DNA from: Candidatus Nanoarchaeia archaeon | GTDB taxonomy: Archaea > Nanobdellota > Nanobdellia > Woesearchaeales > GW2011-AR9 | DNA length: 64,000 nt | Assembly: GCA_035289385.1 (NCBI GenBank) | Contig: DATDXI010000066.1 | Location: 1,548 to 65,547, forward strand | Reading direction: 5' to 3' | The notes under the pieces: model-generated | What the model saw: only the letters and a program-made list of their open reading frames with translations | Database searches by the model: none | Told to the model about the DNA's origin: nothing | In this document: piece after piece, positions 2,774 to 61,242 of the stretch | Position numbering within the stretch: the stretch's first letter is position 1 | Layout: each line of letters begins with the position of its first letter | Position numbers and translations under genes: made by a program

Positions 2774-3091
2774 GTGGCAGAAACAAGAATCATTAAAGAG
2801 GTAAGTTACTTGGAATATAAAGAGCTTATTGACAAATTCAAAGGTAAGATTAAAGTTAATTCCCATACCTGCTTTAGATTAAATGAACAGCAATGAAAAG
2901 TATATAAAGATGAGGCTCTTGTAGAACCATTAACTGGAGAAAAACCAGCATTTATTGGAATTCAGAAAAACCAAAATTATGCAACATTTTTCAGTAATAA
3001 ACAGGGTTATCTTCGGTTAATGTTTAAGGTGACCAACACAAATATTGAAATAGTAACATTTTACCTGATTGACAACATACCAAAAATCTAA
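2774..3091 (+). pseudogene. DUF4258-like (putative toxin-like) gene interrupted by an in-frame TGA at 2894-2896
   Basis: The single frame reads (V)AETRIIKEVSYLEYKELIDKFKGKIKVNSHTCFRLNEQQ*KVYKDEALVEPLTGEKPAFIGIQKNQNYATFFSNKQGYLRLMFKVTNTNIEIVTFYLIDNIPKI. The C-terminal ...IVTFY pattern is typical of DUF4258. It lies directly upstream of a DUF2283 gene, which is the usual partner. Confidence 0.4.
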
Positions 3092-3092
3092 A

Positions 3093-3476
3093 ATGAAAAT
3101 AAGACAGCTTGATGCAAAAGGGAAGGGGGAAATGGATTATGATTATGCAAATGATATTTTATTCTTTAAAGTTAAAGAAAGAGAATATGATCATTCCATT
3201 GAATTAGAAGATGTTATTTTAGATATTGATAAAGAAAGATACATTACAGGAATCCAAATTTTTGGAGCATCAAAGATGTTTAATGTTGAGAAAGACGCTT
3301 TACGGAATGTTAAAAAATGGGAGTTTAAAGTGAGAACAGAAGGTAAGGTTGTCTATGTTCAGTTAATGTTTGAAATGTTACGAAGAAATCAAGTAGTAGA
3401 ACGTGGTCAAAACTTGGTGAGAGAAGCTTCATCTTTATTGACTGATTCTGAAGTTATGTGTGCAGCAACAGCATGA
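3093..3476 (+). CDS. DUF2283-family small protein; the track ORF starts at a TTG at 3069, but ATG 3093 is the probable start
   Basis: MKIRQLDAKGKGEMDYDYANDILFFKV...DIDKERYITGIQIFGAS matches the DUF2283 pattern (YD.e.D.l.i....G.I.GIEI..AS). Confidence 0.5.
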   Translation: MKIRQLDAKGKGEMDYDYANDILFFKVKEREYDHSIELEDVILDIDKERYITGIQIFGASKMFNVEKDALRNVKKWEFKVRTEGKVVYVQLMFEMLRRNQVVERGQNLVREASSLLTDSEVMCAATA

Positions 3477-3552
3477 TTTATTGCCTTCTTGGTCTATACC
3501 CATAGCTTGCTGCGACGGAGAGCTTAATTCCTTTCTGGAAGAAGAGATAAAA

Positions 3553-3921
3553 CTATTTCAAGTGTTGTGTTATATCTCCTACTACTTTATCAGAATCAAA
3601 TTCTCCTTTATCATAGAAACCATTTGCTCCATAACGAAGAGCATTCCTAACAACATCTGAACCTCCCGCGCTTACTAAATAGAATGGAACATTATTTCCT
3701 GATCCTCTAATTTTTTGGAGAGATTTTAATCCTGCACCTTTTTCTTCCATGTCATTATCACTGATAACTAAGGAATAATCCCCCTGTAAAACACGTTCTA
3801 CTAAGTCACTCCCAGTTTCAACTGCATCAACCTGCGCATCTGGAAAAGCATTTTTTACTAAACTAACATATGTTCCTCTCCAACTTGGATAGTCGTCAGC
3901 AACAATAACCTTCTTTACCAT
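3553..3921 (-). CDS. Stand-alone CheY-like response-regulator receiver domain protein
   Basis: Has the acidic pocket (VIVADDYPS ... LVISDNDMEE) plus a conserved downstream Lys/Ser pattern. The 122-aa length is typical of receiver domains. Confidence 0.65.
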   Translation of the reverse strand: MVKKVIVADDYPSWRGTYVSLVKNAFPDAQVDAVETGSDLVERVLQGDYSLVISDNDMEEKGAGLKSLQKIRGSGNNVPFYLVSAGGSDVVRNALRYGANGFYDKGEFDSDKVVGDITQHLK

Positions 3922-4026
3922 TTTCCATTGGATAAATAAGACTTATTTATATATCTTCCGCTTAATTGTAACTAAAAAGTAGTGTTTAATTTTCTAAGAT
4001 CTTACACAGGTTTCGTATTAGTCCCC

Positions 4027-4045
4027 CCGCAAAAACCTTTATATA
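4027..4045 (+). promoter_or_regulatory. Archaeal BRE/TATA-type promoter element CCGCAAAAACCTTTATATA upstream of proS
   Basis: The TTTATATA box ends about 23 nt before the proS ATG, consistent with a leaderless transcript. The identical 19-mer recurs before sppA at 60287-60305. Confidence 0.5.
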
Positions 4046-4067
4046 GGATAGTCCTATTCTTTATCTC

Positions 4068-5513
4068 ATGTCACAGAAGGACAATAAGGGGATAACCGTC
4101 AAGAAAGTGGATGATTTCTCTGAATGGTACACACAAGTTCTGCAGAAAGCAGAGCTGATCGATTATTCTCCTGTTTCTGGATGTTATATCTTAAGGCCTA
4201 GCGCTTACCACATCTGGGAGAATGTGCAGCAATTCTTTGACAAGCTGATCAAGGCTGATGGAGTGAAAAATGCCTATTTCCCGTTATTTATCCCTGAAAA
4301 TCTATTGACAAAAGAAAAACAGCACGTGGAAGGCTTTGCCCCAGAAGTAGCTTGGGTCACTCACGGTGGTAATACAGCATTGCAAGAACGATTAGCTGTC
4401 CGCCCTACCTCTGAAACGATCATGTATGACTCTTATGCCAAATGGATAAGGTCACACAAAGATTTGCCGTTACGCCTAAACCAATGGTGTAATGTGGTGA
4501 GATGGGAATTCAATCATCCCGTTCCTTTTCTGAGAAGCAGAGAATTTCTCTGGCAGGAAGGTCATACTTGTTTTGCCACACCGGAAGAAGCTCATGCTGA
4601 AGCAGAGAAGATATTAGGTTTCTACGAGCAAGTCTTTAGGGAATTGTATGCTATCCCTGTGTTAAAAGGTAAAAAATCCAATCAAGAAAAGTTTGCCGGG
4701 GCAGATTATACTTTGTCGGTAGAAGCATTCCTCCCTAACGGAAAAGCTATTCAAGGAGCAACATCCCATCACCTTGGCCAGAATTTCTCTAAAGCATTCA
4801 ATATCTCGTTTACCGATTCTCAAGGAAAAACAAGTTATGCTTACCAGAACTCTTGGGGTATCTCTACAAGGTCCATAGGAATAATGATTCTGATGCATGG
4901 GGATGATAAGGGTTTAGTGATTCCTCCAAGAATTGCCGAGAAGCAAGTGGTTATTGTTCCAATTTTATTTGATGACTCCAAGAAGAAAGTTCTGTCGGAA
5001 GTTCAAAAGATCAAAGATCATCTAGAAAAGCAAGGTCTTCGAGTTCATGTTGATGACCGCGAAGATTATTCTCCCGGCTGGAAGTTTAATGAGTGGGAAG
5101 TGAAAGGTGTTCCTATTAGAATTGAACTAGGTCCGAAAGATCTGGAGAAGAAGCAGGCTGTTGCTGTCCGAAGAGATACAGGAGAGAAGAAAGCGATTAG
5201 TCTTGCCAAGATCAGCAAGGATGTTCCATCTCTGCTGGATACTATCCAGAATGATCTGTTGCAAAAAGCAGAGAAGTTTTTGAAGAGTTCTATCGTTTCT
5301 GTTTCAACAGGAAAAGAAGCAGAGCTGGCATTCAAGCAGGGGAAACTTGTTTCTGCTTCATGGTGTGGTTCAAAAGAATGTGAAGAGTCGGTGAAGGAAA
5401 AGACTGGGGCAAAATCACTGAACAGCCCGCTGCTCCATGGAAAAGTTTCTGGAAATTGTTTTGCCTGCAAGAAGAAGGCTGTGGCACCGTTTTATCTTGG
5501 GAAGAGTTATTGA
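4068..5513 (+). CDS. proS: Prolyl-tRNA synthetase, archaeal/eukaryotic type
   Basis: Class II aaRS catalytic core (motifs around [60 protein letters not shown]) with the C-terminal zinc-binding domain characteristic of archaeal ProRS. Confidence 0.9.
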   Translation: [481 protein letters not shown]

Positions 5514-5538
5514 TTGTGGTCGGTGTTTATTCTTCTAC

Positions 5539-6513
5539 CTATTCTAATTCCCATTCTATGGCATTGGGCCAATACATCACTCCTTGAGCTCCCCACTCTG
5601 AATGATATGGATCTGCACCAAAAGCAAGATCACGAACAGTTTGCTGGCCATTGGCAATACTATCCTGGATATTGTCCTCAAGGGCAGTGATATTAAAATT
5701 AGCGGTTTCATAAGGTCCTCCCACACTTTCTGTACTTAAAATGCCGTGTACACTGACCAACTTTGTTTCTCCTTCTTCATCTAAGAGATGATTTGCATTG
5801 ACCTGAATTTCAGTTCCTTGCTCAGGGTTTCGCCAATAGGCGGCATGTCTCGCATAGCGGATCGCGCCTGCGGACATTTCCCGCCAGTCGTCGAAGTTAC
5901 AAGATAGGTGTTCAAGCGGAAAATTGGAAAAATAGATAGCATTTCCTGAAAAATCTCTCACATCAGATAAATTTCCCTCTTCCAGATATCTTTGTACCTG
6001 CTCTAGGTGATTGCCAGGGACGACTAAAAGGTCAGCATGATAACTTGGGCCTTCAGCGATCACTTCGTTCTGTTCTCCAAGTAACACATTGTTTTGTTGT
6101 CTATAATGTGCCAAAGCAGTTGCTTCCAGACTTCCACCGCCATTCAGGATATCAATTAAAGATACTTCACTTTGCAGACGTTCTGCCAATTGGGTTCCCA
6201 ATGTTTCGGCAGCGGTCACGAAATTACTGTAGCTTTCAGGACATTCCCCTGTGGAACGATCTTCTGGACAGAGGGCACGCAGCCGCTCAGCGGACTTCCC
6301 AAAAAATCCTAAACAGTCTTTAAGGGTGGAATTGACGCTCATCTGGGGATGGTTTAAGGGAGTGGGCGTGGAGATTTGGCGGTCGGAAGGTTGAGGGGCC
6401 GGGGCACTTGTCTCGGGCAAAGGAGGCGCATCATAACGATATAATTTGTCGTCACCACAGACGGCCAGGGCTAGGCCGATGAGTCCGACGTATATTTTGG
6501 TTCGAAGAGTCAT
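5539..6513 (-). CDS. Secreted or membrane-anchored hypothetical protein
   Basis: N-terminal hydrophobic segment (IYVGLIGLALAVCG) followed by a proline-rich linker. No catalytic motif recognised. Confidence 0.45.
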   Translation of the reverse strand: MTLRTKIYVGLIGLALAVCGDDKLYRYDAPPLPETSAPAPQPSDRQISTPTPLNHPQMSVNSTLKDCLGFFGKSAERLRALCPEDRSTGECPESYSNFVTAAETLGTQLAERLQSEVSLIDILNGGGSLEATALAHYRQQNNVLLGEQNEVIAEGPSYHADLLVVPGNHLEQVQRYLEEGNLSDVRDFSGNAIYFSNFPLEHLSCNFDDWREMSAGAIRYARHAAYWRNPEQGTEIQVNANHLLDEEGETKLVSVHGILSTESVGGPYETANFNITALEDNIQDSIANGQQTVRDLAFGADPYHSEWGAQGVMYWPNAIEWELE

Positions 6514-6652
6514 TGTTACTACTAATAGGTGGTTTATTTATAAATGTTTTGCTGCTTTTCAAGGAAAATGTTGCTTTTGATTGTTCGTATCGAGGGTTTA
6601 TCTCATTTGTCTAAAAGCAAATCTTATATAGCAGATTTTCTTCTGGGTAGGT

Positions 6653-7792
6653 ATGGTTGATAAAGAAATCATCGTCATCGGGGATATTGAGATAGGGGCA
6701 GGCAACCTTACGGATGATTTCATCAGTGACCAGGCCTTCTCTGATTTTATTCATACATTGACAAAGAGGGATCATCCTGTGGATGTTATTTTGAACGGGG
6801 ATACTTTTGATTTTCTGAAATGCCCTTATAAGGCTGGTGATTCGTATATCTATCCTCGCCATATCACTGTAGATATCTCGTTAAATAAACTAGGATTGAT
6901 GCATCATGCTCATAAAAAGTTCTTTGAGTCCTTAAAAAAATTTGTCAGAAAGCGGAATAATAATCTCTACTTTACCCTTGGTAATCATGATCAAGACTTA
7001 TTGTTTCATGAAGTTCGAGAAGATATCCGAAAACTGCTTGGCGGATCGAAACGGATCCATTTTCCTGGATTAAAATATCAGCAGCATGGGGTCTATGTGG
7101 AGCATGGGCATCAATATGATTTTCTGAGCAAGATCAATTTTCAGAAGCTTTTCTTGAATTATAAAGGGAAACCTATCTTGAATTTTCCCTGGACGGCATT
7201 TAGCTTAGTCAGCACGTTCATGGACATCAAAGAACAACATCCATTCATGGAGCGTATCACGCCCAGGCCGTTGCTGTTATCATTTAACAGCATGGTCTTA
7301 CGCAAGATCAGTTTTCGCTCTCTAGGCTATTTTTTAAAGACGGTCTTGTATTATCCGTTCCGCTATTATTCTGATCCTACCTACAACTTGCCGACAAAAC
7401 TGTTTGGCTTCTTTTATTATCGCGTGAAAAACAGACAATGGGATGAAGATGATATCATCAATGTCTTTAGGAGGAAGAAAAAAAAAGTGAAGCATCAAGT
7501 CTATGTTCTGGGCCATGTGCATAAGGTGCAGATGCTGGAGCAGAGGAAGAGAGTGATCATCCATCCAGGATCTTGGAGAGACGAATATGAATTGAATGCG
7601 GAGACGAGGATGCTCATGCCAAAAGATAAGTTTTATGTTCAAGTGTTGATTCATGATGATAGTCATTTAGAGTATAATCTCAACAGCTGGCCGATCAAGA
7701 GGAGCATCTTTTTGTTTGATGATGTTCGAAAGCATGAATTAGCGTATATCTATCTGGCTGCTCAGGAAGAAAAGTATGAGCCTCAATGGTGA
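6653..7792 (+). CDS. Calcineurin-like metallophosphoesterase
   Basis: Ordered metallophosphatase motifs GDIEIG...GDTFD...GNHD...GH.H...GH.H. Confidence 0.6.
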   Translation: MVDKEIIVIGDIEIGAGNLTDDFISDQAFSDFIHTLTKRDHPVDVILNGDTFDFLKCPYKAGDSYIYPRHITVDISLNKLGLMHHAHKKFFESLKKFVRKRNNNLYFTLGNHDQDLLFHEVREDIRKLLGGSKRIHFPGLKYQQHGVYVEHGHQYDFLSKINFQKLFLNYKGKPILNFPWTAFSLVSTFMDIKEQHPFMERITPRPLLLSFNSMVLRKISFRSLGYFLKTVLYYPFRYYSDPTYNLPTKLFGFFYYRVKNRQWDEDDIINVFRRKKKKVKHQVYVLGHVHKVQMLEQRKRVIIHPGSWRDEYELNAETRMLMPKDKFYVQVLIHDDSHLEYNLNSWPIKRSIFLFDDVRKHELAYIYLAAQEEKYEPQW

Positions 7793-18330: not shown

Positions 18331-19398
18331 ATGAAAAAAGTTAATCCAAAAGTATTCTCAAAATCCCGGACAGATTTAGCTGGAGATATATTGTGTAATT
18401 CCCAGAGTTCAGAAGAGGAAAAAGATGAGGCTTTAGAGATATTGAGCAACTGGAGAGGTGCACATAGCTATCCCCTGCATGTTTTTAAACAGCGATTAAA
18501 AAATGTTTCTGAAAAAATAGATCCCTCTGCATTATCAGCACAGCGACTAAAACGTGTCCCTTCTATTATAAAGAAGCTTAACCGGGAATATGGCGGTAAA
18601 AAAGCCACGATGAAATTAACTCAAATGCAAGATATTGCTGGATGTAGGGCCGTTATGTCTAATGTATCATTGGCAAAAAAACTATATTTAGATCATTACA
18701 TAAAGGGTGATATAAAACATAAACGGGTAAATGAAAAAGATTATATCACTCATCCTAAGAAAGACGGGTATAGAAGTATTCATTTAATTTATAGATATCA
18801 TAGTGATAAAAAAGGAAGAATTAATTTCAATGGGTTATTGATTGAAGTCCAGATTAGATCTAAGTTGCAGCATATATGGGCTACAGCAATTGAAACTGTT
18901 GATTTTTTTACAAGACAAGCGATAAAATCAAATCAAGGTCAAGAAGATTGGGCAGATTTTTTTAGATTGGTAAGTTCTGCATTTGCTAAGTTTGAGGGGT
19001 GTCCAACAATACCAGAAACACCAACAGATGAAGAAGAACTCTACAAAATGATTAAGCAAAAAGAGATGGAGCTTCAGGTTAGAATAAAGATGAATCGTTG
19101 GGCAAAATCACTCAAGCTTTTTGATAATTTAAAAAATAAAAAGAATTTTCACTTTTTTCTATTGGAATTAGATACCATTCAAGAAAAACTAACTATCTCT
19201 GCATACTCCAAAAGACAAGAGCAAAAAGCTATCTTCGATTATGCAGCGGCTGAGAAAAAGATTTATGGCAGGGGAGAGTATGATGTTGTTCTAGTAGGTG
19301 CAGATACTGTTAAAGATTTGAAAAAAGCTTATCCCAATTACTTTCTTGATACTAAAGAATTCCTAATTAATCTTAATAAAGTTCTCAATAAACATTGA
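18331..19398 (+). CDS. RelA/SpoT-domain protein (small alarmone synthetase / toxSAS-like nucleotide pyrophosphokinase)
   Basis: Synthetase-domain signatures: MQDIAGCRAVMSNVSLAKKLY, KKDGYRSIHLIYRYHSD and LIEVQIRSKLQHIWATAIE, equivalent to the DIAG.R, GYRSLH and EVQIRT..QH.WA motifs of RelA/SpoT synthetase domains. The protein has about 155 extra C-terminal residues and no hydrolase domain. Confidence 0.75.
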   Translation: MKKVNPKVFSKSRTDLAGDILCNSQSSEEEKDEALEILSNWRGAHSYPLHVFKQRLKNVSEKIDPSALSAQRLKRVPSIIKKLNREYGGKKATMKLTQMQDIAGCRAVMSNVSLAKKLYLDHYIKGDIKHKRVNEKDYITHPKKDGYRSIHLIYRYHSDKKGRINFNGLLIEVQIRSKLQHIWATAIETVDFFTRQAIKSNQGQEDWADFFRLVSSAFAKFEGCPTIPETPTDEEELYKMIKQKEMELQVRIKMNRWAKSLKLFDNLKNKKNFHFFLLELDTIQEKLTISAYSKRQEQKAIFDYAAAEKKIYGRGEYDVVLVGADTVKDLKKAYPNYFLDTKEFLINLNKVLNKH

Positions 19399-22044: not shown

Positions 22045-22467
22045 TTGTTTCCTTTAGTCATGGAAAAAGAGATAAAATATCCTACTGTAGAGCAAATCAT
22101 AGAGTACAACGTCTTGGCTATTACATTGATAAAAGTAAAAAAAGCTGATTGTCCACAAGTCCTCAGCCATGCAAGGATAGAGCTCATTATTAAGAATTGT
22201 AAAGAGCTGGATGAAAATTTATATGATAAAGCAGTGTGCTTGTTGAAGGGAATAATTCAATTACACCCATTTGCGAGCGGAAACAGAAGAACGGCGTTTG
22301 TTGTTGCAAAGGAATTCTTGAAAGAAAACGGAGGAAAGTTTAATATAGACGATGACCCTAAACAAGCTAAGGTAATGTTAGGGATACGCGAAAAATATTA
22401 TACTGATAAGGAAATTAAGGAGTGGATTCAACATGGAAAAATCAAAGAGTTCAAAAGATTTGAATGA
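22045..22467 (+). CDS. Doc/Fic-family toxin-like protein
   Basis: The motif HPFASGNRRTAFVVAKEFL matches the Doc variant of the Fic motif (H.F.(D/N)(A/G)N(K/R)RTA). The 140-aa size is typical of Doc. Confidence 0.6.
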   Translation: MFPLVMEKEIKYPTVEQIIEYNVLAITLIKVKKADCPQVLSHARIELIIKNCKELDENLYDKAVCLLKGIIQLHPFASGNRRTAFVVAKEFLKENGGKFNIDDDPKQAKVMLGIREKYYTDKEIKEWIQHGKIKEFKRFE

Positions 22468-37480: not shown

Positions 37481-38746
37481 CTACCGGAGAAGGTGTGTTC
37501 TTCGTCCATACGTTTCTAGAATCGTTTTTTCTTGTTCGGGATCCATTTCATAACGGCCTTTCTCTACTTTTCTGACACCTATTCTCTGCATAAATCCAGT
37601 AAATGATCCTAAGGGGATGTCATATGTTGATGTGATTTCTGTGAACGTCCAGACTTTAGCAAGGGTGCCTGATCCGTTTCCTTCTGAAGATACATTATCT
37701 GCTAGGTTATCTGAGGGAGAGTTTTTCACTATTTTTTTTTTCCCCAGACCTAAGCGGTTGATCCTATCGTAAAGGCTCTTTTTGCTAATGCCAAGGCGCT
37801 TGGCGGCCATATTTTTATTCCCTTTGGTATTTGCCAAAGCGGTGAGAATACATGAACGCTCAGTCTCTTTCAAAATGTCGTAGATGGTTCTTTCCTGTCT
37901 TCTTTCGGTTGTTTCTGTAGTTTGAGATAAAGATGTCCAATCATAATTGATGTCCTCTGCCTGAATTTCACCTGCTCCTCGTAGGATGATAGCTCTCTCC
38001 ACGACATTCTCCAAATCTCTTACATTGCCACCCCAGTCATAGAGCTTCAGCTTTTCCTGTGCTGCTGGAGAGATGCCCGTTACTTCTATTCCATGATCCT
38101 GGGCATATCTTTCTATAATATATCTAGCTATCAGGGGGACATCATCAATCCTGGCGCGCAAGGGAGGAAGTTCTAGAGGAAAAGCATTGAGGCGATAAAA
38201 TAGGTCTTGCCGAAAAGTTCCTTTACTCATTTCGTCTTCAAGATTGCGGTTTGTCGCGGCGAGAATTCTTACATTGACAGGAACAGGGGTATTGCTTCCT
38301 ACCGGGAAAACTACGCGCTGCTGAATCACTTGAAGCAGCTTTGCCTGTAAATGGGGGGACATTTCTCCAATTTCATCAAGAAGGATAGTCCCTCCTTCAG
38401 CAGCTTGAAAATATCCCTTGTAGTCTTTTATTGCGCCAGTAAATGATCCTTTAGCGTGACCAAAAAGCTGAGATTCTAAAACTCCTTCCGCAATTCCTGG
38501 ACAATTTACGGTAAAGAATGGTTTTGCTCCACGGCCATTTCTGTTGTTGTAATGAAGAGCAGCAGCAACCAATCCTTTTCCCGTTCCTGTCTCACCGGTA
38601 ATCAAAACGTTGGTTGGCATGTCCACAAGGCGATTGATAAAACCATAGAGTTGCAGCATTTCAGGAGTTTGACCAACAATAGGCCCTTGGCCATGTTCTA
38701 TCATATATCGGCCAGTCTCTGGAGAATAATGTCTTATTTCTGCCAT
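37481..38746 (-). CDS. Sigma-54-interaction-domain AAA+ transcriptional activator (bacterial enhancer-binding-protein type) with Fis-type HTH and ~85-aa C-terminal extension; no N-terminal sensor domain
   Basis: Walker A GETGTGKGLVAAALH, the GAFTGA-equivalent loop GHAKGSFTGAIKD, Walker B GGTILLDEIGEM, an arginine-finger region RILAATNRNLEDEMSKGTFRQDLFYRLN, and an HTH block ILTALANTKGNKNMAAKRLGISKKSLYDRI. Confidence 0.75.
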   Translation of the reverse strand: MAEIRHYSPETGRYMIEHGQGPIVGQTPEMLQLYGFINRLVDMPTNVLITGETGTGKGLVAAALHYNNRNGRGAKPFFTVNCPGIAEGVLESQLFGHAKGSFTGAIKDYKGYFQAAEGGTILLDEIGEMSPHLQAKLLQVIQQRVVFPVGSNTPVPVNVRILAATNRNLEDEMSKGTFRQDLFYRLNAFPLELPPLRARIDDVPLIARYIIERYAQDHGIEVTGISPAAQEKLKLYDWGGNVRDLENVVERAIILRGAGEIQAEDINYDWTSLSQTTETTERRQERTIYDILKETERSCILTALANTKGNKNMAAKRLGISKKSLYDRINRLGLGKKKIVKNSPSDNLADNVSSEGNGSGTLAKVWTFTEITSTYDIPLGSFTGFMQRIGVRKVEKGRYEMDPEQEKTILETYGRRTHLLR

Positions 38747-42571: not shown

Positions 42572-42858
42572 TTAGGGGCATGCCCTCGGTCGAATATACT
42601 TGGCTACTGCAGCTGAACCCTAACGGCTTCTCGGACCTGCGCTCCTCTGAACATGGACAGTACAGGTTATGGCTGCTTTCTTCCGAATCTGACCAGATTC
42701 CCAGCATCGCCATCCCAAAGGACAGATCGTCAGCAAAGACGCCAGGACTGCAATAACCCCGTAAACCCTTCCTCAGGCTTCGGCTCCGTGTAAAGTCCGT
42801 TCACGGTGACAACGCAGGACTAGCGCGCCAGCCTAGCTTACCCTAATCTCTAGCTTGA
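42572..42858 (-). ncRNA. ffs: Signal recognition particle RNA (7S/SRP RNA); boundaries approximate
   Basis: GC-rich (about 55%) 290-bp non-coding stretch in a roughly 40% GC genome. The minus strand reads GGUCAGAUUCGGAAGAAAGCAGCCAUAACCUG. This matches the universally conserved SRP RNA helix-8 (domain IV) motif CAGGUCCGGAAGGAAGCAGCC, including the GGAA tetraloop and the AGCAGCC asymmetric loop. The 3' end has a GGGCAUGCCC hairpin. Confidence 0.65.
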
Positions 42859-56652: not shown

Positions 56653-57624
56653 ATGACTATAGACCTGCGTTTTGACCCTGAGTATGGAAATCTGACTAGG
56701 GGTGTTAGTGAATTTCAGGAAGAGTTAGCAAGAAGGAACCATATTGGTCCTAGCTTGGTTAGGCCTACTAATGGCGCAACTGGTGCATTAAGTGCCATAT
56801 TTTCGGCAACAAGAATTCGGGATGCTCATCAGGGGAAAAAATCTGTTGCGCTCTTGGCTTCTCCAGAATATTTTGATGCATTTCGCATGCTGAAGATGTA
56901 TGGATTTGATATTACAACTGCCGCAAATGGGATGATGAGATATCCTACATCCGAGATCATTGAACAGCTAGGTAGCAAGAAGCCAACTCTATTCTACGTT
57001 TCTGTACCCAATAATCCTACGGGGATTCTTCTTTCCGATACGGAGTTAGATCAGATTATCAATGAAGCTCCAGTTGAAACACGGATGGTTTTGGATAGGA
57101 CTTTAGTCCATCCAGAGCAATATTGCGAGACTTCTTCTTTAAGAGAAAAATTTGGAGACCGAGATATTATTATTGTTGACTCATTTTCAAAATCGTTGGG
57201 GGTTGTAAGTGATAGAGTGGGTTATTTTGTTGGCTTTCAGCCAGAAACAGTAGAAGCTGTCCATCCTTACGCTCATGCGCCGAGCAGTTTAGCTATGGCG
57301 AAGGTGAGAGGTTTGTTAGACGATGATGGTATTGAGCAAGAAGTTGAGACAGTAGTTAAGAAAGTTAGAGAATCAGATACTATTTTAAGACAATGGAATA
57401 AAGAGCAGCCAAAAGCAACGTATCATCCATCACTTTCTAATTTTGCAGTTATTGAATTATCTGGAATAAGTGGAGATGAATGCAGAGAAAGATTAGAAGA
57501 GCAAGGAATCCTTGTGCGTTCAGGTAGCCAGTTGTATATGTCTGCTGATGTTATTAGAATAGACATGGGACAACCAAAAGTATTGCCTGAAGTTCTTGAA
57601 AAATTAGATAAGATTCTTGCATAA
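56653..57624 (+). CDS. Class I/II PLP-dependent aminotransferase family protein (short; HisC/CobD-like)
   Basis: PNNPTG and the SFSKSLG PLP-lysine motif. Confidence 0.55.
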   Translation: MTIDLRFDPEYGNLTRGVSEFQEELARRNHIGPSLVRPTNGATGALSAIFSATRIRDAHQGKKSVALLASPEYFDAFRMLKMYGFDITTAANGMMRYPTSEIIEQLGSKKPTLFYVSVPNNPTGILLSDTELDQIINEAPVETRMVLDRTLVHPEQYCETSSLREKFGDRDIIIVDSFSKSLGVVSDRVGYFVGFQPETVEAVHPYAHAPSSLAMAKVRGLLDDDGIEQEVETVVKKVRESDTILRQWNKEQPKATYHPSLSNFAVIELSGISGDECRERLEEQGILVRSGSQLYMSADVIRIDMGQPKVLPEVLEKLDKILA

Positions 57625-57678: not shown

Positions 57679-58146
57679 CTAATACAATGGTCCTTGTTCT
57701 GGAGAATATTTTTGATGTTGTGGATTTCCAGGATGATAACCCCCAGATATATTTGGTGATACATAACTTCCACCGTTAGCTCTGGAATAAAGGCTGAGAG
57801 CATCCGTTGCAACGAAATAAGATACATTGTTTCTCCTTCCCGAACTGGTATAATCTCCCGTCAATAGTTCTAATGGGCTTCTGCCTGACGGACGGTAGAG
57901 ATCTTTCTGCTTGTCTAAACCATGAGCTTCTCTTGCTGCCTGATAGCCCGTCATTGCCGACAGCTGATGGGCATGATCCATGTAAAGAGGATGCATCTGT
58001 TTTCTTTCTTCCGGCATCGTTGGGCGTTTTGTTGCAAATTCTCTTCCTAATTGGAAAAAAATTGCTCTAGATGCATCAAATTCATGCTGTCCAAAAGAGC
58101 CTTCTGGGTGTTTAGCAATTCCTTGGTAGGGGTGTGTTTCGATCAT
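57679..58146 (-). CDS. Hypothetical protein
   Basis: ORF only, 155 aa. It overlaps the alternative ORF 57423-57827. Confidence 0.3.
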   Translation of the reverse strand: MIETHPYQGIAKHPEGSFGQHEFDASRAIFFQLGREFATKRPTMPEERKQMHPLYMDHAHQLSAMTGYQAAREAHGLDKQKDLYRPSGRSPLELLTGDYTSSGRRNNVSYFVATDALSLYSRANGGSYVSPNISGGYHPGNPQHQKYSPEQGPLY

Positions 58147-58304: not shown

Positions 58305-59270
58305 ATGGTTCAAGAAGCGATTGCTCAGATAAGGGAACGGTATCAAGGGACTCCATTAGTGGCAGTCATAGGCGGTGCTTCTCAACATTCGGCAAGAGAA
58401 GCCTATGAGCTTGGCAGAGCAACAAGAGAAGCGATGGCTCATATTGGTGGGGTATCATTTACGGTCGGCTTTCCTTCCTGGTGTGTTGATTTTTATCGTG
58501 GTGTAAAAGATTACGCTCGAGATACCCTCAATAGGGCATTTGGTGAAGCTTTACGTGGAAAATTAACCCAGGGAGGAGATGGTAGGGATTTATTTTTCTT
58601 GCTCTTGCCTCAAGATTTTCAGGAGGCTCTTCGTGAACGAGTGTCTATTTACCGAGGCTTACATCACTTGAATGGTAATACTTCGCTGAGCTATGAGATT
58701 GCTGGAGCGACGATGAAGGAGACGATGGCTGCTGTTATTCCAGAAGTTGCTGATCTTGTCGTGCTTCATAATGGAAATGAAAGGTTAGCTGCCTACGCAT
58801 CTCGTCTGGTCGCTGCTGGGAGAAGGGTATTTCCTATCATTACCTCTGGTGGCTCGTCAGAATTACTGGCAAAGTATGCTAGAGATCAAGCAAATCCTCG
58901 GGAAGTGGCGGAGTTAGCAAGATCTGGCGTTATTCTTGATCCTGAACAGAAAGAGTTGGTTCATCCAGTCTACGATGCAGCCAGGCTTCGCTATGCTTTA
59001 GCGAATGCTTTGGGGCTAACACCTGCTGATGAACTTCTAGATTCAAGGTTACTTCCTCCGGAACTGCCTGGATCTTTGGAACAAGTTCCATCGAAGCTGG
59101 TGAAGGTAGATGAAGAGCAAGCTGCTACTACTTTGCCAAAGGAAGACGTTTCATTAAGAGATCTCATTGATAGAAGTATTGATGAAACGTTGTCTGATTC
59201 TGAATCTGCTGCTCTGGCAGAGGCAGTCATGCAGAGCATTATGAGACATGGTAAACGCGATCTGAAATAG
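58305..59270 (+). CDS. Hypothetical protein, GC-richer than neighbours (Rossmann-like N-terminus)
   Basis: VAVIGGASQHSAREAYELGRATREAMAHIGG ... PIITSGGSSELL. No confident family assignment. Confidence 0.4.
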   Translation: MVQEAIAQIRERYQGTPLVAVIGGASQHSAREAYELGRATREAMAHIGGVSFTVGFPSWCVDFYRGVKDYARDTLNRAFGEALRGKLTQGGDGRDLFFLLLPQDFQEALRERVSIYRGLHHLNGNTSLSYEIAGATMKETMAAVIPEVADLVVLHNGNERLAAYASRLVAAGRRVFPIITSGGSSELLAKYARDQANPREVAELARSGVILDPEQKELVHPVYDAARLRYALANALGLTPADELLDSRLLPPELPGSLEQVPSKLVKVDEEQAATTLPKEDVSLRDLIDRSIDETLSDSESAALAEAVMQSIMRHGKRDLK

Positions 59271-59289
59271 TTCTGATTGAAGAAAAAAA

Positions 59290-59521
59290 GTAGCGGAGGA
59301 TGGATTCCCCCGCCAGTTACCCTAGGCGAGTCGTATGTCTGAGGGATATTCTGCCGAAATCCCTCTTATTGGAAAGGAAATGTCTGCTGTTATTTCCTTC
59401 AATAATTCTGGAGAGTTTAATAAATGAATAATAAAAAATAGCGGAGGATGGATTCCCACGCCAGTTACACTAGGCAAGTCGTATGTCTGAGGGATATTCT
59501 GCTGAAATCCCTCTTATTAGA
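59290..59521. repeat. Two tandem ~85-bp direct repeats, each beginning with a copy of the 3'-terminal 17 nt of the adjacent initiator tRNA gene (att-like)
   Basis: GTAGCGGAGGATGGATTCCCCCGCCAGTTACCCTAGGCGAGTCGTATGTCTGAGGGATATTCTGCCGAAATCCCTCTTATTGG (59290-59373) and TAGCGGAGGATGGATTCCCACGCCAGTTACACTAGGCAAGTCGTATGTCTGAGGGATATTCTGCTGAAATCCCTCTTATTAG (59439-59521). A third GTAGCGGAGGATGGATT copy is the tRNA 3' end itself (59602-59618). Confidence 0.55.
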
Positions 59522-59602
59522 AATACAGAAACTAAATATTTTTAAGAAGAATACCTAGATTTTCAGAAGTATACCATTTTCAGGATGAATAGATAAAAAA
59601 AG

Positions 59603-59677
59603 TAGCGGAGGATGGATTTGAACCATCGATCTCAGGGTTATGAGCCCTGCGGGTACTCCTAGCTTCCCTACTCCGCT
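59603..59677 (-). tRNA. Initiator tRNA-Met (anticodon CAU)
   Basis: The minus-strand sequence reads AGCGGAG-UA-GGGAAGCUAGGAGUACCC-G-CAGGG-CUCAUAA-CCCUG-AGAUC-GAUGG-UUCAAAU-CCAUC-CUCCGCU-A. It has an A1:U72 pair and three consecutive G:C pairs in the anticodon stem, the archaeal/eukaryal initiator hallmarks. There is no encoded CCA. Confidence 0.7.
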
Positions 59678-59838
59678 ATGGTAATACTAAGAAAGATTAG
59701 CCCGTATTTAAAAACATTTGGTTTTATTCCCGTCTGGGTTAATACCCAACAGCTCTGCTGCGGTTGGGAGTTTCATTCTAGGACAACCGGCCCAGCTCAC
59801 TTTCTAAGTGATAGTCTCAAAATCACTCTCTTTTCGGA

Positions 59839-60183
59839 TTGTGCCGGACAACCACTATTTATTTAAAGTACAAATCACTTCTAAATAAAATGTCAGAACT
59901 TCAAAGTAATTCTACTCGAGAAAATTCAAGATTTAGGAATATTCCCCTTGGAATTTTTGAGCTTGTTGGGGGTTCTAGTTCAGTATTTGTTGGTGCATAT
60001 GTTGTAAATTTAGCGCGTAATGCTCCGATCCTAGAAAAATCATTTGAACCGGCACAATTGATTACTTATAGTATTGGCACTGCTGGTGTAATAGTTGCAG
60101 TAACTGGTCTTGTTGCAATTGTGAATGGAGTTAGAGATATAGTGGGTGAATATATTACCTCACAAAAATATCAAACAGATTAA
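59839..60183 (+). CDS. Small membrane protein
   Basis: Two hydrophobic helices. 114 aa. Confidence 0.3.
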   Translation: MCRTTTIYLKYKSLLNKMSELQSNSTRENSRFRNIPLGIFELVGGSSSVFVGAYVVNLARNAPILEKSFEPAQLITYSIGTAGVIVAVTGLVAIVNGVRDIVGEYITSQKYQTD

Positions 60184-60286
60184 GAAAAATCAAATACCCT
60201 TTAAGTCATGCGTTGTAAATACTATTAAAAATTTTCTGCCCCGATTTCTCAATTACTATTGAGAGTTTCCTAAACTTTATTCTCCA

Positions 60287-60327: not shown

Positions 60328-61242
60328 ATGAAAAAGGTGGTACTATCGAGGAGAACAGCTATTTTGCTCACCCTCGGAGCGGTGTTGTTCGTCTTGTTTT
60401 TCCTGCTGCCTATTTCCTTATCTCTGTTTTCCTCTAGCAGTTTTGGAAATGTTGCTTTGATCCCTATTGAAGGGGCTATCACTACAACAAGCGATACTTC
60501 ATTTGGGCAAACATCCGTCTCGTCAGCAGATATCGTTCAATTCATTGAAGATGCGGAAGCTGACCAAACTATTGATGCAATTGTGTTAGAGATCAATTCT
60601 CCCGGCGGTACTCCTGTTGCTTCTGATGAGATAGCACAAGCGGTCAAGAAAGCACAGAAGCCAGTCATCGCTGTCATAAAAGATATCGGCGCTTCAGGTG
60701 GCTATTGGGTAGCTTCTGCCACGGATTATATTTTTGCCAACCGCATGTCGATCACGGGAAGTATCGTTGTAATATCTTCCTATCTAGAATTCAGCGGCTT
60801 ATTGGACAAGTATGATGTTCGTTATGAGCGCCTTGTTTCCGGTGAGAATAAAGATATCGGCAGTCCCTTCAACAAATTAAATGAACAGCAGAGAGAACTG
60901 ATGCAGGGCAAGATTGATACTCTGCATGAGTTTTTTGTGGAGGAAGTCGCTCTGAATCGAGATATTCCATTAGAAGATGTTCGATCCATGGCTACAGGTG
61001 AAATATTTTTAGGATCGGAAGCATTGCAGCTTGGGCTGATCGATGAACTAGGAAATCTAGATGATGCCAAATCCTATCTTCAAGATACTTTTGGCTTAGC
61101 CTCTGTTGACTTCATCCCTTATGTCAAAGAAACTGGCTTTTTTGAATCATTGATGGGATTAGCGAGCAGCTTTTCCTTTACGATAGGTGAAGGCCTTGGT
61201 ACTATACTAGTAAAAAGAGATCAAAATCTATTTATGATATGA
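60328..61242 (+). CDS. sppA: Signal peptide peptidase SppA (peptidase S49)
   Basis: LEINSPGGTPVASDEI...IGASGGYWVASATDYIFAN...TGSIVV shows the S49 ClpP-fold serine/lysine dyad regions. There is an N-terminal TM anchor. Confidence 0.8.
   Translation: MKKVVLSRRTAILLTLGAVLFVLFFLLPISLSLFSSSSFGNVALIPIEGAITTTSDTSFGQTSVSSADIVQFIEDAEADQTIDAIVLEINSPGGTPVASDEIAQAVKKAQKPVIAVIKDIGASGGYWVASATDYIFANRMSITGSIVVISSYLEFSGLLDKYDVRYERLVSGENKDIGSPFNKLNEQQRELMQGKIDTLHEFFVEEVALNRDIPLEDVRSMATGEIFLGSEALQLGLIDELGNLDDAKSYLQDTFGLASVDFIPYVKETGFFESLMGLASSFSFTIGEGLGTILVKRDQNLFMI

Follow-up and report, generated by a model that had tools for sequence, protein, structure and literature searches.

Two tandem units downstream of an initiator-type tRNA-Met (tRNA-iMet) gene are not decaying scars of integration. 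Judged from their sequence, they are most likely attachment-type (att-type) junction modules kept under selection, each of which may be a small RNA gene or a terminator unit. The best overall explanation, held with somewhat less than even confidence, is that attR-type junctions are now selected and that each forms a small transcription unit. Partial tRNA copies beside tRNA genes are routinely annotated as footprints of mobile elements and receive no further attention. In this very compact genome, such a footprint behaves as if it were functional: it is preserved almost base for base between lineages that are saturating at synonymous sites, occurs in one or two copies, and is laid out like a small transcription unit. 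The analysis covered a 64-kb stretch of DNA, referred to as the window, and its relatives in genome and metagenome collections.

Anatomy of the repeat units

The tRNA-Met(CAT) gene was located at 59602/3-59677 on the minus strand (ARAGORN; Rfam RF00005, 61.4 bits). It has an A1:U72 pair and a GGG/CCC anticodon stem, a combination consistent with an initiator tRNA, and it is identical at 76/76 positions in the sister lineage L011. The host is an ultra-small DPANN archaeon. The TATA-like motif of the tRNA scores 7.0 with a promoter weight matrix learned from 41 gene upstream regions within the 64-kb window, and its region is conserved in L011.

The 17-mer GTAGCGGAGGATGGATT is the reverse complement of the tRNA 3′ end, from T-loop position 58 to the discriminator A73, plus one base. 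It occurs exactly at 59290-59306 and 59602-59618, and matches to it were found in 0/100 shuffled sequences. An earlier note on this DNA had placed further copies at 59290 and 59439; the first is exact, whereas the second begins at 59438 and has one mismatch (A for the first G), with an exact 16-mer from 59439. The note’s direct repeat of about 85 bp and 92% identity is present and measures 91 nt at 93% identity, with a spacing of 148 nt, and its hairpin GAGGGAT-N10-ATCCCTC recurs in both units with a loop of N11. Both extra copies of the tRNA tail lie downstream of the intact gene in direct orientation. In each unit, a 69-nt arm is fused, at tRNA position 57/58, with a copy of the 16-17 nt that end tRNA-iMet; oligo-T follows, and the identity with the tRNA end continues past the gene end into this oligo-T (Table 1).

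Table 1. Features of the tRNA-iMet locus in window coordinates.
Feature	Position	Strand	Remarks
Initiator-type tRNA-Met(CAT) gene	59602..59677	-	last 17 nt (59602-59618) are the repeated core
TATA-like promoter motif of the tRNA, TTTTAAATAC	59704..59713	-	ends 26 nt before the tRNA 5′ end
Oligo-T (7 T) directly 3′ of the tRNA	59595..59601	-	presumed terminator, from sequence reading
Spacer 2	59524..59594	.	AT-rich, 25% G+C
TATA-like motif in spacer 2	59538-59547	-	24 nt before hairpin 1 of unit 2
Unit 2	59433..59523	-	arm 59523-59455; core copy 59454-59438 (16/17); oligo-T 59438-59433
Hairpin 1 (GAGGGAT-N11-ATCCCTC), unit 2	59489-59513		
Hairpin 3, unit 2	59439-59463		arm G-run pairs with core; one internal mismatch
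Spacer 1	59376..59432	.	28% G+C; hairpin GGAAAT-N10-ATTTCC at 59376-59397
TATA-like motif in spacer 1	59416-59425	-	50 nt before hairpin 1 of unit 1
Unit 1	59285..59375	-	arm 59375-59307; core copy 59306-59290 (17/17); oligo-T 59289-59283
Hairpin 1 (GAGGGAT-N11-ATCCCTC), unit 1	59341-59365		
Hairpin 3, unit 1	59291-59315		10 bp, 5-nt loop, then T7; fits a terminator-like pattern
orf321	58305..59270	+	convergent neighbour; stop codon 12 nt from unit 1 oligo-T; context, outside the repeat

The arm aligns with the tRNA body no better than shuffled sequences do (local alignment, p = 0.23-0.28), and the Rfam tRNA covariance model finds no match in the units even at E ≤ 10. A degenerate tRNA pseudogene was rejected on these two grounds. 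Spacers 1 and 2 are unrelated (p = 0.88), whereas spacer 2 has a homologue in the L011 spacer (p = 0.0003), with a 35-nt indel. The array is therefore not a plain tandem duplication with a 148-bp period, since orthologous spacers still align while the two spacers of the window do not. The target-site duplication of a transposon or casposon was also rejected, as inspection and a repeat search found no terminal inverted repeats inside a duplicated target; what follows each core (TTTTTTTATC...) and the arm end (...CTGGCGGGGG) are not reverse complements. Several further candidates were set aside by eye against consensus features, namely a C/D-box or H/ACA guide RNA, a retroviral-type primer-binding site, an integron attC, an archaeal ORB, and a dif site. 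The units lack a RUGAUGA/CUGA pair beside a guide, a TGG that would complement CCA, and R''/R' core sites.

Just 131 and 147 nt separate the cores, and no gene lies inside these intervals. A single ORF of at least 50 aa overlaps the array (59322-59477, on the minus strand with a TTG start); it covers the unit 1 arm, spacer 1, and the unit 2 core, and the variable sites of the units are not of a synonymous type. A small protein was rejected: all six variable sites are non-synonymous in the only open frames, and they show no codon periodicity.

Distribution and conservation in relatives

Ten metagenome contigs from the same population have an identical locus; this population occurs in Rifle-type aquifer samples (ERZ4903072, ERZ27254752/67, SRR3989342/44, JGI 3300025317). 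The comparison with relatives that the earlier note had proposed shows one unit in the sister lineage (L011, L032, and L034) versus two in the window lineage. L041, an outgroup with the same synteny, has no unit; its tRNA-iMet gene is inverted and contains introns after position 37/38 and in the T arm (~53/54). L045 has no unit in the 91 nt after its orf321 homologue, and 16 GTDB species with the same tRNA 3′ 22-mer likewise gave none. Among the relatives compared, none has the same arrangement with zero units. Homologues of the flanking SppA gene at 60% identity have no tRNA nearby, and a homologue search with orf155 returned the L011 lineage only. The arm/spacer junction is common to L011 and unit 2, and the structure is therefore older than the split of both lineages.

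Either window unit shares 64/69 arm sites (92.8%) with the L011 unit, without indels. Four-fold degenerate sites of the same two lineages are 63.5% identical (n = 441), that is, 36.5% differ, so about 25 arm differences would be expected where 5/69 are seen (P = 2e-8 in this single species pair; P = 0.003 under an assumed neutral difference rate of 0.20). No gaps occur across the 91-nt unit, whereas other intergenic alignments have 20-44 gap columns, and other intergenic DNA of the window and L011 shows ~80-84% identity and numerous indels. Nucleotide identity is only 69.8% in orf321, whose end lies 12 nt from the array, so the conserved block is sharply bounded. In the alignment of three units from two lineages, 3/6 variable arm sites carry three different bases (P = 0.0016 under equal rates), and the units are equidistant, with 5-6 differences per pair. 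The units are nearly unchanged while neutral sites have diverged by ~36%, which therefore points to selection on nearly every arm base. Selection that acts on the units in situ is judged probable.

These data bear directly on the interpretation of the earlier note, in which two related elements inserted serially into tRNA-iMet and were then almost wholly deleted, leaving two inert attR junctions that drift. The junction anatomy, the tandem layout, and the copy number of two versus one fit such scars, as do the similar extra tRNA-tail copies in L015 and L017. Additionally, tandem att re-use and att repeats of 8-26 bp are documented for archaeal elements (PMC6563490). However, scars should diverge at the neutral rate and collect indels, and the arms have done neither, with strong rate heterogeneity among their sites. 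The structure also predates the split of both lineages, and scars would require two independent deletions that left 131 and 147 nt, together with the retention of both remnants by a compact genome. The earlier note had held that syntenic repeats in relatives without mobile DNA would speak against it, and this is the situation in the one close relative available. Thus, the att-like anatomy in that note stands, with the tandem layout, the differing copy number, and the absence from outgroups on its side, whereas its description as a scar does not agree with the conserved arm or with the lack of an element; scars are very improbable.

Origin at the tRNA gene and search for an element

The units have the traits of att-type junctions, namely a non-tRNA arm joined within the T-loop, tandem copies, and a direct repeat of the tRNA 3′ part. 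Copy number differs between the sister lineages, and the unit is absent from the outgroups. From this anatomy alone, an origin by site-specific recombination is somewhat favored. DNA with an attP that matched the tRNA 3′ end would have recombined in a tyrosine-recombinase-like manner to give attR-type junctions, with a putative crossover at the start of the identity block (AATCCAT). Two units are present, and the site would therefore have been used twice. The arm would supply the inverted repeat GGCGGGGGA / TCCTCCGCT, similar to those that flank the crossover at core-type recombinase sites.

An inverted repeat does straddle the left edge of the identity block (TGGCGGGGGA-ATCCA-TCCTCCGCTA). This repeat, which coincides with hairpin 3, exceeds what arms of genome composition give (p < 2e-4 for unit 1; ~0.008 for unit 2 and L011), whereas shuffles of its own G-rich arm give only p = 0.017 and 0.20. 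The tRNA side of attB offers no good symmetric partner for a core site, as GATGGTTCA and GGCGGGGGA match at 4/9 positions (by eye), and the similarity of the hairpin 1 half-sites to the core is not significant.

Two other DPANN genomes have comparable modules. In L015, an additional copy of this tRNA tail shares the left boundary and is joined to an unrelated arm. L017 has two arm-plus-att modules that are 95% identical to each other, with arms unrelated to those of the window units; the tRNA part of the first is only a truncated segment, and 3.6 kb that include a DDE transposase lie between the copies of a 44-bp repeat.

The search that the earlier note had suggested, through viral, phage, plasmid, genome, and metagenome data, returned no element, integrase, or attP. 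Seven pattern scans of IMG/VR, which included the L015 and L017 arms, found no element with the arm; the sole matches were three identical chance matches of an 18-mer within a coding region. INPHARED phages and PLSDB plasmids contained no unit or attP with the arm, and a GTDB scan with the junction 19-mer gave no match elsewhere. No further unit was found by BLAST of the 64-kb window or by a covariance model run over 26 loci. In the contigs retrieved via the tRNA from genomes and metagenomes, no element lies beside the tRNA; the metagenome scan used the tRNA as query, and DPANN mobile elements are poorly sampled.

The window itself agrees with the earlier note in having no visible integrase, as none occurs among the 38 ORFs scanned with Pfam; the flanking ORFs encode SLOG-like, SppA, and housekeeping proteins. 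The note had also singled out the neighboring gene, orf321, as compositionally distinct. It is modestly richer in G+C (46.0% vs 40.8% for the window; top 2.7% of equal-sized windows). Searches with orf321 itself gave no Pfam, PHROG, or PDB match, and a single-sequence AlphaFold model reached a pLDDT of 35. Its remote homologues match PF18306/PF03641, and by these sequence matches orf321 is a fast-evolving, divergent SLOG/LOG-like protein and not an integrase. The gene occupies the same place in L011 (65.6% aa identity) and L041. A hidden integrase or element cargo was therefore rejected for orf321.

The conservation of the units has a second possible source outside host function. The arm and core could remain close to the attP of an unsampled circulating element, with the units as remnants of small non-autonomous elements in an accretion array that still recombines with it; selection would then act on the element, not on the host. 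Such re-templating would yield high similarity without a host function. It would also account for the 10-bp inverted repeat that surrounds the opening bases of the identity block, for constraint at nearly every arm position, as in a protein-bound attP arm, and for the gain or loss of exactly one unit between lineages. The window and L011 lineages both occur in sample ERZ4903072, and DPANN viruses that encode tyrosine integrases exist (bioRxiv 10.1101/2025.02.15.638363). However, no such element was found in IMG/VR, INPHARED, or PLSDB or beside the tRNA in the retrieved contigs, and no integrase is present among the tested ORFs of the 64-kb window. Recent re-templating also predicts pairwise near-identity, whereas the three units are equidistant, and ordinary substitutions and indels account for the evolution of the spacer beside the arm. 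Re-templated att sites are thus unlikely. As a caveat to the preferred reading, the high similarity of the units could result from such an unsampled element, shared by two lineages that co-occur, through repeated re-templating. If an unsampled element does maintain the units, the arm sequence is a ready probe for this element and its integrase.

An origin without any mobile element has also been considered. The tail could have been copied during break repair or illegitimate recombination at the T-loop, for instance after cleavage by a homing endonuclease, or the units could be relics of an intron-containing or split tRNA-iMet or working 3′-fragment genes. The syntenic outgroup L041 lends this some substance with its tRNA-iMet introns and a LAGLIDADG-like ORF that abuts the tRNA 3′ end (Pfam E = 0.0018, below the curated cut-off). 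The units also have the layout of a 3′-fragment gene, with a promoter-like motif, a leader, a 3′ exon, and oligo-T. Two resemblances were noticed post hoc: the hairpin 1 stem (AGGG/CCCU, then AGA) has the same sequence as the anticodon stem of the initiator plus the beginning of its variable loop, and the end of the arm, GGTAACTGGCG, is similar to that of the T-arm intron in L041, GGTGACTGCCG. Neither is significant (p = 0.25 for hairpin 1; p = 0.04-0.9 for the L041 intron), and homology of the arm to the L041 introns was rejected. Against such an origin, the tRNA covariance model misses the units, the adjoining tRNA-iMet is intact and intron-less, so a 3′ fragment is not needed, and no complementary 5′ fragment or trailer occurs within the 64-kb window. 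Additionally, the arm folds on itself and on the exon, leaving no free leader. A non-mobile origin is accordingly improbable.

Possible functions and comparison with known systems

On the preferred reading of selected attR-type junctions, each unit would be a small transcription unit on the tRNA strand, with a TATA-like motif 24-50 nt upstream. Promoter-like motifs precede all three units (two in the window and one in L011) with scores of 7.0-7.6, as high as the tRNA promoter, and a shuffled AT-rich spacer gives such a match by chance in 21-27% of cases each. Their distances are 24, 34, and 50 nt, and the motifs are not orthologous. The predicted RNA of ~80-110 nt would carry one hairpin on its 5′ side (GAGGGAU...AUCCCUC), and on its 3′ side a second hairpin would pair the arm G-run with the tRNA-derived tail. 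The oligo-U would then end transcription and shield the convergent orf321 from antisense read-through.

Folding predictions favor the tRNA strand. The minus-strand z-scores are -3.0 and -2.2 versus -0.55 and -1.8 on the plus strand, and the best structure has two hairpins, the second of which pairs the arm with the tRNA tail, followed by oligo-U. Hairpin 3 of unit 1 contains two non-Watson-Crick pairs, which are G-U on the minus strand only. Among three sequences, one compensatory pair is seen (A-U to C-G, columns 50/65), and the three sites with three states all fall in predicted loops. In the G-run, a G-to-T change breaks a hairpin 3 pair in 2/3 units and is uncompensated. A search of Rfam 15 over 59250-59620 gave chance-level matches only (E ≥ 0.26, at least 42 bits below the gathering score). 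From these models, an RNA function on the minus strand is a tentative proposal.

The 3′ hairpin is predicted to imitate an acceptor stem, with 7 bp that include a genuine 3′ acceptor strand, a discriminator A, and a trailer. This mimic may act as terminator and stabilizer, and tRNA-processing enzymes (RNase P, tRNase Z, or the CCA-adding enzyme) might dock on it. A more specific proposal, and a somewhat doubtful one, is that an attachment-site junction was domesticated, so that a conserved gene for a small RNA, present once or twice, arose from the fusion of arm and tRNA tail; its 3′ end would mimic an acceptor stem and consist of the genuine initiator-tRNA tail.

The units might instead work as DNA without an RNA of their own. 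A cis element built from two palindromes and the copied tRNA terminator could be a protein site or a bidirectional terminator or insulator between orf321 and the tRNA. The two dyad-symmetric sites within 70 nt suit this role, as do the position between convergent genes in both lineages, with the orf321 stop 12 nt from the oligo-T, and conservation that is uniform over stems and linkers, as expected for sequence-specific protein contacts. The hairpin and T-run also fit a terminator-like pattern. However, archaeal termination is generally thought to require only oligo-T, and 69 conserved bases look like far more than a terminator would need. The G-U pairs give the minus strand a clearly better fold, the window lineage keeps two full copies of which only one abuts orf321, and no candidate binding protein is known. 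A purely DNA-level role has little probability.

If the preferred reading of selected junctions is correct, the locus would be a concrete case of mobile-element junctions recruited as non-coding RNAs or cis elements and would add to the scant knowledge of mobile DNA and small RNAs in Woesearchaeota/DPANN. Domestication as proposed above would mark a route from tRNA integration scars to new non-coding RNAs in genome-reduced DPANN archaea.

In eukaryotic 3′ ends of the MALAT1/mascRNA type, a tRNA-like minihelix recruits tRNA-processing enzymes. The predicted 3′ hairpin of the units similarly mimics an acceptor stem, and recognition by RNase P, tRNase Z, or the CCA-adding enzyme is possible in principle. 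However, its helix has only 9-10 bp and no T arm, and we know of no archaeal precedent for RNA 3′ ends of this kind.

Nanoarchaeum equitans and Caldivirga maquilingensis have split tRNAs whose 3′ fragments are separately transcribed genes. The units share with these a DPANN context and the order of promoter-like motif, leader, tRNA 3′ segment, and oligo-T. The syntenic relative L041 has a T-arm intron in tRNA-iMet itself, which is relevant to this likeness. In contrast to split tRNAs, the locus has an intact tRNA-iMet, the tRNA fragment is limited to positions 58-73, the 69-nt leader folds on itself, and no partner 5′ fragment lies within the window. Known tRNA splits lie in or 5′ of the anticodon loop (e.g., 37/38) and are not known from the T-loop.

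Streptococcal CIMEs and ICE accretion arrays consist of a decayed element between two att sites, lack recombination genes, and arise from repeated use of one site; CIME copy number shifts by recombination between att copies. The units resemble them in the array layout of a single re-used attachment site. However, CIMEs are bacterial, kilobases long, and gene-bearing, whereas the “elements” here would be only ~130-150 nt.

Close anatomical parallels are archaeal elements that use tyrosine recombinases (SSV-type, pNOB8-type, and thaumarchaeal iMGEs), which likewise produce a direct repeat of the tRNA 3′ part and leave the tRNA intact. In these archaeal integrative elements, as in the units, identity extends to and past the gene 3′ end, and sites are re-used in tandem. 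Thaumarchaeal att repeats measure 8-69 bp, with a median of 17 bp, and the 17-24 bp of the units fall inside this range (PMC6563490). Core-type sites also have an inverted repeat around the presumed crossover (PMC8371274). Unlike archaeal integrative elements, the units enclose nothing (131/147 nt, no ORFs), have no integrase and no known matching element, and would place the crossover at the 3′ edge of the T-loop rather than in the symmetric loop itself. They differ, finally, in a junction that is conserved well above the neutral expectation.

Anatomy of the repeats

The window belongs to a DPANN archaeon. Its tRNA-Met(CAT) gene, which we take to be the archaeal initiator from its A1:U72 pair and GGG/CCC anticodon stem, is accompanied by two direct repeats. 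The 17-mer GTAGCGGAGGATGGATT, the reverse complement of the last 17 nt of tRNA-iMet (T-loop position 58 to A73 plus one base), occurs at 59290 (17/17) and 59438 (16/17), with zero matches in shuffles. Both repeats contain the hairpin GAGGGAT-N11-ATCCCTC. The earlier note described these tRNA-tail repeats and their hairpin, and both are confirmed; its strand, an overlooked mismatch and its loop length (now N11) are corrected.

Along the tRNA strand, the tRNA and its T7 are followed by a 71-nt AT-rich spacer, then unit 2, a 57-nt AT-rich spacer and unit 1. Each unit consists of a 69-nt arm, a core that copies the tRNA tail, and a T-run (T7 in unit 1). Only 12 nt separate unit 1 from the stop codon of the convergent gene orf321. 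Identity among the three core copies extends through the T-run and then loosely for ~10 nt further. Because the two spacers are unrelated to each other (p = 0.88), the array is not simply a duplicated 148-bp period; the copied block is arm, core and T-run.

The arm is not a diverged tRNA: shuffled sequences align locally to the tRNA body just as well (p about 0.25), and at E <= 10 the arm is not matched by the Rfam tRNA model. Coding is rejected because 6/6 variable sites are non-synonymous in the sole frames open through the arm, and a transposon or casposon because the units have no terminal inverted repeats.

Coordinates of the features in the window and in related loci
Feature	Locus	Position	Strand	Remarks
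tRNA-Met(CAT)	window	59602/3-59677	minus	ARAGORN and Rfam
Direct repeats (units 1 and 2)	window	59285-59375; 59433-59523		91 nt, 93% identical, spacing 148 nt
orf321	window	58305-59270	plus
orf155	window	57679-58146
Class I/II aminotransferase	window	56653-57624		archease/orf155 interval
Segment missing from L011	window	59732-60270		~540 bp
orf97	window	59890-60183		97 aa
SppA	window	60328-61242		100% identical to an NCBI protein labelled 'Candidatus Nanoarchaeia archaeon'; next-closest NCBI relatives named Woesearchaeota
Archaeal SRP RNA	window	42575-42843
Sigma-54-interaction-domain AAA+ activator with Fis-type HTH	window	37481-38746
RelA/SpoT-domain protein	window	18331-19398		low-GC stretch (33-35% G+C)
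Fic-domain fragment	window	22045-22467		low-GC stretch (33-35% G+C)
Single unit	L011	9683-9775
Haem-oxygenase-like gene	L011	7162-7845
tRNA-iMet and 233-aa LAGLIDADG-like ORF	L041 (JGI Ga0637471_0006190)	3833-4678		ORF adjoins tRNA 3' end
Region with the extra tail copy	L015 (JAZDMZ010000052.1)	1985-2116
tRNA-iMet and two arms	L017 (CP060218.1)	3077-6721

Distribution and conservation among relatives

The 620-nt intergenic region is 100% identical in 10 metagenome contigs of the same population. A sister lineage (L011, equivalent to L032 and L034) has the gene order of the window and an SppA that is 92% identical in amino acids. It carries a single unit, then a shorter spacer and a tRNA identical to the window's. 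The L011 unit and window unit 2 have their arm/spacer junction in common, together with the adjoining ~20 nt of spacer (spacer homology p = 0.0003), and the other L011 flank matches that of unit 1. The lineages thus differ by exactly one unit plus spacer, and the common junction makes the structure older than their split.

L041, a more distant syntenic locus found via its orf321 homologue, contains VIT1, archease, two small ORFs, orf335, tRNA-iMet, a 233-aa ORF and SppA, and no unit. Its tRNA-iMet lies on the opposite strand, with introns after 37/38 and in the T arm. The 233-aa ORF has the motifs LAGDGY and LADTDF and matches Pfam LAGLIDADG_3 at E = 0.0018, below the curated cut-off. In this arrangement, an intron may shield the tRNA from an adjacent homing endonuclease. 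The contig of another orf321 homologue (L045) has no unit in the 91 nt past the stop codon. The unit occurs in 0/16 GTDB species having the tRNA-iMet 3' 22-mer in common, and a covariance model from the three units found no additional member among 26 loci.

Five orthologous genes compared between the window and L011 are 63.5% identical at four-fold degenerate sites (n = 441). Intergenic DNA elsewhere is about 80-84% identical where alignable, with many indels, and orf321, which ends next to unit 1, is 69.8% identical in nucleotides. The L011 arm differs from that of either window unit at 5 positions, with zero indels. Under the four-fold rate, five or fewer differences have a probability of 2e-8; assumed neutral difference rates of 0.20 and 0.16 raise it to 0.003 and 0.026. 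With 5/69 differences and zero indels, the units are not changing in the manner of dead DNA, and the description of them as scars is not upheld; truly inert scars are very improbable.

The three units are equidistant (5-6 differences per pair), and both window units are conserved to an equal degree. Half of the variable arm sites (3/6) are three-state amid 63 invariant sites (P = 0.0016 under equal rates), which indicates that most arm positions are constrained and a few are free. Conservation begins and ends with the unit, which makes a regional recombination tract unlikely. As judged from three unit sequences in two lineages, purifying selection probably acts on the modules in situ. An improbable alternative, which would also keep the arms alike, is that an unsampled element circulating in both co-occurring lineages re-templates them. 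The arm, the arm-core junction, and the core plus T-run had no match in INPHARED phages, PLSDB plasmids or GTDB genomes, and in IMG/VR just three identical chance 18-mer matches inside a coding region.

The flanking genes are housekeeping or lineage-specific (AlaRS, VIT1, archease, aminotransferase, orf155, orf321, orf97, SppA and a giant surface protein), and neighbour genes had no match in PHROGs. The neighbouring orf321 is indeed somewhat GC-richer than the window (46.0% vs 40.8%). However, its remote homologues match PF18306 and PF03641 and it occupies an equivalent position in relatives; by these matches it is a very divergent SLOG/LOG-like protein, not an integrase. It is 65.6% identical in amino acids to the L011 copy, whereas its slower-evolving neighbours are 90-94% identical. 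The adjoining orf155 has no homologue detectable beyond the window and L011 lineages. The segment missing from L011 lies between the tRNA and SppA promoters and holds orf97, which has no match in Pfam or PHROG, and ~125 nt of GC-richer non-coding DNA. It has no clear target duplication and no Rfam match. As aligned, the intergenic region around tRNA-iMet is indel-prone, and gene turnover around the locus is high. In L011, a haem-oxygenase-like gene stands in place of the aminotransferase, and TrmB instead of AlaRS lies upstream of VIT1. Elsewhere, the window has three bacterial-type regulators, the AAA+, RelA/SpoT and Fic entries of the table.

Predicted fold and transcription

On the tRNA strand, the unit is predicted to fold into hairpin 1 (7-bp stem plus 3-bp extension), a weak 4-bp middle helix and hairpin 3 (UGGCGGGGGA-AUCCA-UCCUCCGCUA), in which the arm G-run pairs with the tRNA-derived tail. 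Downstream are A, one base that is C in unit 1 and U in the other two units (unit 2 and L011), and oligo-U. Hairpin 3 is improbable against arms of genome composition (p < 2e-4 and about 0.008) and less so against shuffles of its own G-rich arm (0.017 and 0.20). All three-state sites fall in predicted loops, columns 50/65 carry a single compensatory change (A-U to C-G) among the three units, and one G-to-T change disrupts a hairpin 3 pair in 2/3 units. The units have no match in Rfam. Likenesses of hairpin 1 to the initiator anticodon stem and of the arm end to the L041 T-arm intron were noticed post hoc and are not significant.

A promoter matrix was learned from 41 gene upstream regions of the window. 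In most window genes, its consensus, ATTTATAAAT, stops 20-23 nt short of the start codon (about 21 nt before ATG), which suggests mostly leaderless mRNAs. The tRNA-iMet promoter scores 7.0, and motifs upstream of hairpin 1 score 7.1 (unit 2, at 24 nt), 7.6 (unit 1, 50 nt) and 7.4 (L011, 34 nt). A chance match in the AT-rich spacers is expected in 21-27%, so these motifs are compatible with transcription and not proof of it.

The unit may tentatively be modelled as a small transcription unit read from the minus strand. An acceptor-stem-like hairpin plus oligo-U would form the end of the RNA and would also stop antisense read-through into orf321. The fuller model, in which the att junction has been domesticated and yields a tRNA-tailed small RNA, is somewhat doubtful. 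Hairpin 3 plus T7 is terminator-like by simple scan, as a DNA-level protein-binding or terminator element could be. Such an element is quite unlikely; fold z-scores are -3.0 and -2.2 on the minus strand vs -0.55 and -1.8 on the plus strand, and the two non-Watson-Crick pairs of unit 1 hairpin 3 are G-U solely on the minus strand.

Origin and relation to known systems

The att origin suggested in the earlier note stands on anatomical grounds; no element, integrase or attP was found in the window ORFs or in the databases searched. Its remark that no integrase is visible is borne out by a Pfam scan (recombinases in 0/38 window ORFs). Site-specific recombination of the tyrosine-recombinase type at the tRNA, used twice, is modestly favoured by the T-loop chimeric junction, the identity past the gene end and the inverted repeat where the identity block begins. 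The same direction is indicated by the tandem arrangement, by the 2/1/0 distribution in relatives and by two independent cases.

These cases are the 2/16 GTDB species with the tRNA 3' 22-mer that have other extra tail copies. In L015, an Aenigmatarchaeota MAG, a 17-nt tail copy lies 100 nt downstream of an intron-rich, poorly modelled tRNA-like gene. The copy has the left boundary of the window (AATCC...) and an unrelated arm. The L015 spacer also includes GATTTGAACC, the reverse complement of a T-arm sequence. The other case is the complete Woesearchaeota genome L017, where two ~111-nt arms with 95% identity lie downstream of tRNA-iMet. Each arm is joined to a tRNA segment beginning at the anticodon loop, and one pair makes up 44-bp direct repeats that are 3.57 kb apart and flank HIT protein, DDE transposase and LD-carboxypeptidase genes; Pfam recognised no integrase. 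The architecture is that of the window (tRNA, arm plus att, arm plus att), but the crossover point and arm differ. The tRNA-iMet 3' end is therefore a recurrent DPANN recombination target with differing partners. Such a sporadic pattern is what mobile-element integration produces (PMC6563490, PMC8371274). An origin outside mobile elements, such as repair of a break at a homing-endonuclease site or the relic of a tRNA that was split or contained introns, would suit the endonuclease-like ORF of L041 and sits poorly with an arm unlike tRNA; it is rather unlikely.

About nine unrelated DPANN MAGs (L013, L016, L018, L020-L022, L024, L025, L027) carry the motif (A)CAC[TC]AA[AT]TCT[TC]GGAC ~55-125 nt downstream of tRNA-iMet. 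Most of those examined have a tRNA-Lys/Lys/Phe cluster ~1.4 kb off on the other strand. The motif could be a small RNA or regulatory site.

The unit behaves like the attR junction of a tRNA-targeting integrative element and probably started as one. However, two defining traits of that family were not seen: there is no element or integrase between the window repeats, and the searches turned up no attP partner for the unit. A relic of such an element should decay neutrally, from which the unit deviates. The layout also resembles that of a split-tRNA 3'-fragment gene, but no partner was found in the window, and the unit has no need for one. Cis-mobilizable element accretion arrays have a similar tandem layout, whereas the window array is one-tenth to one-hundredth their size.
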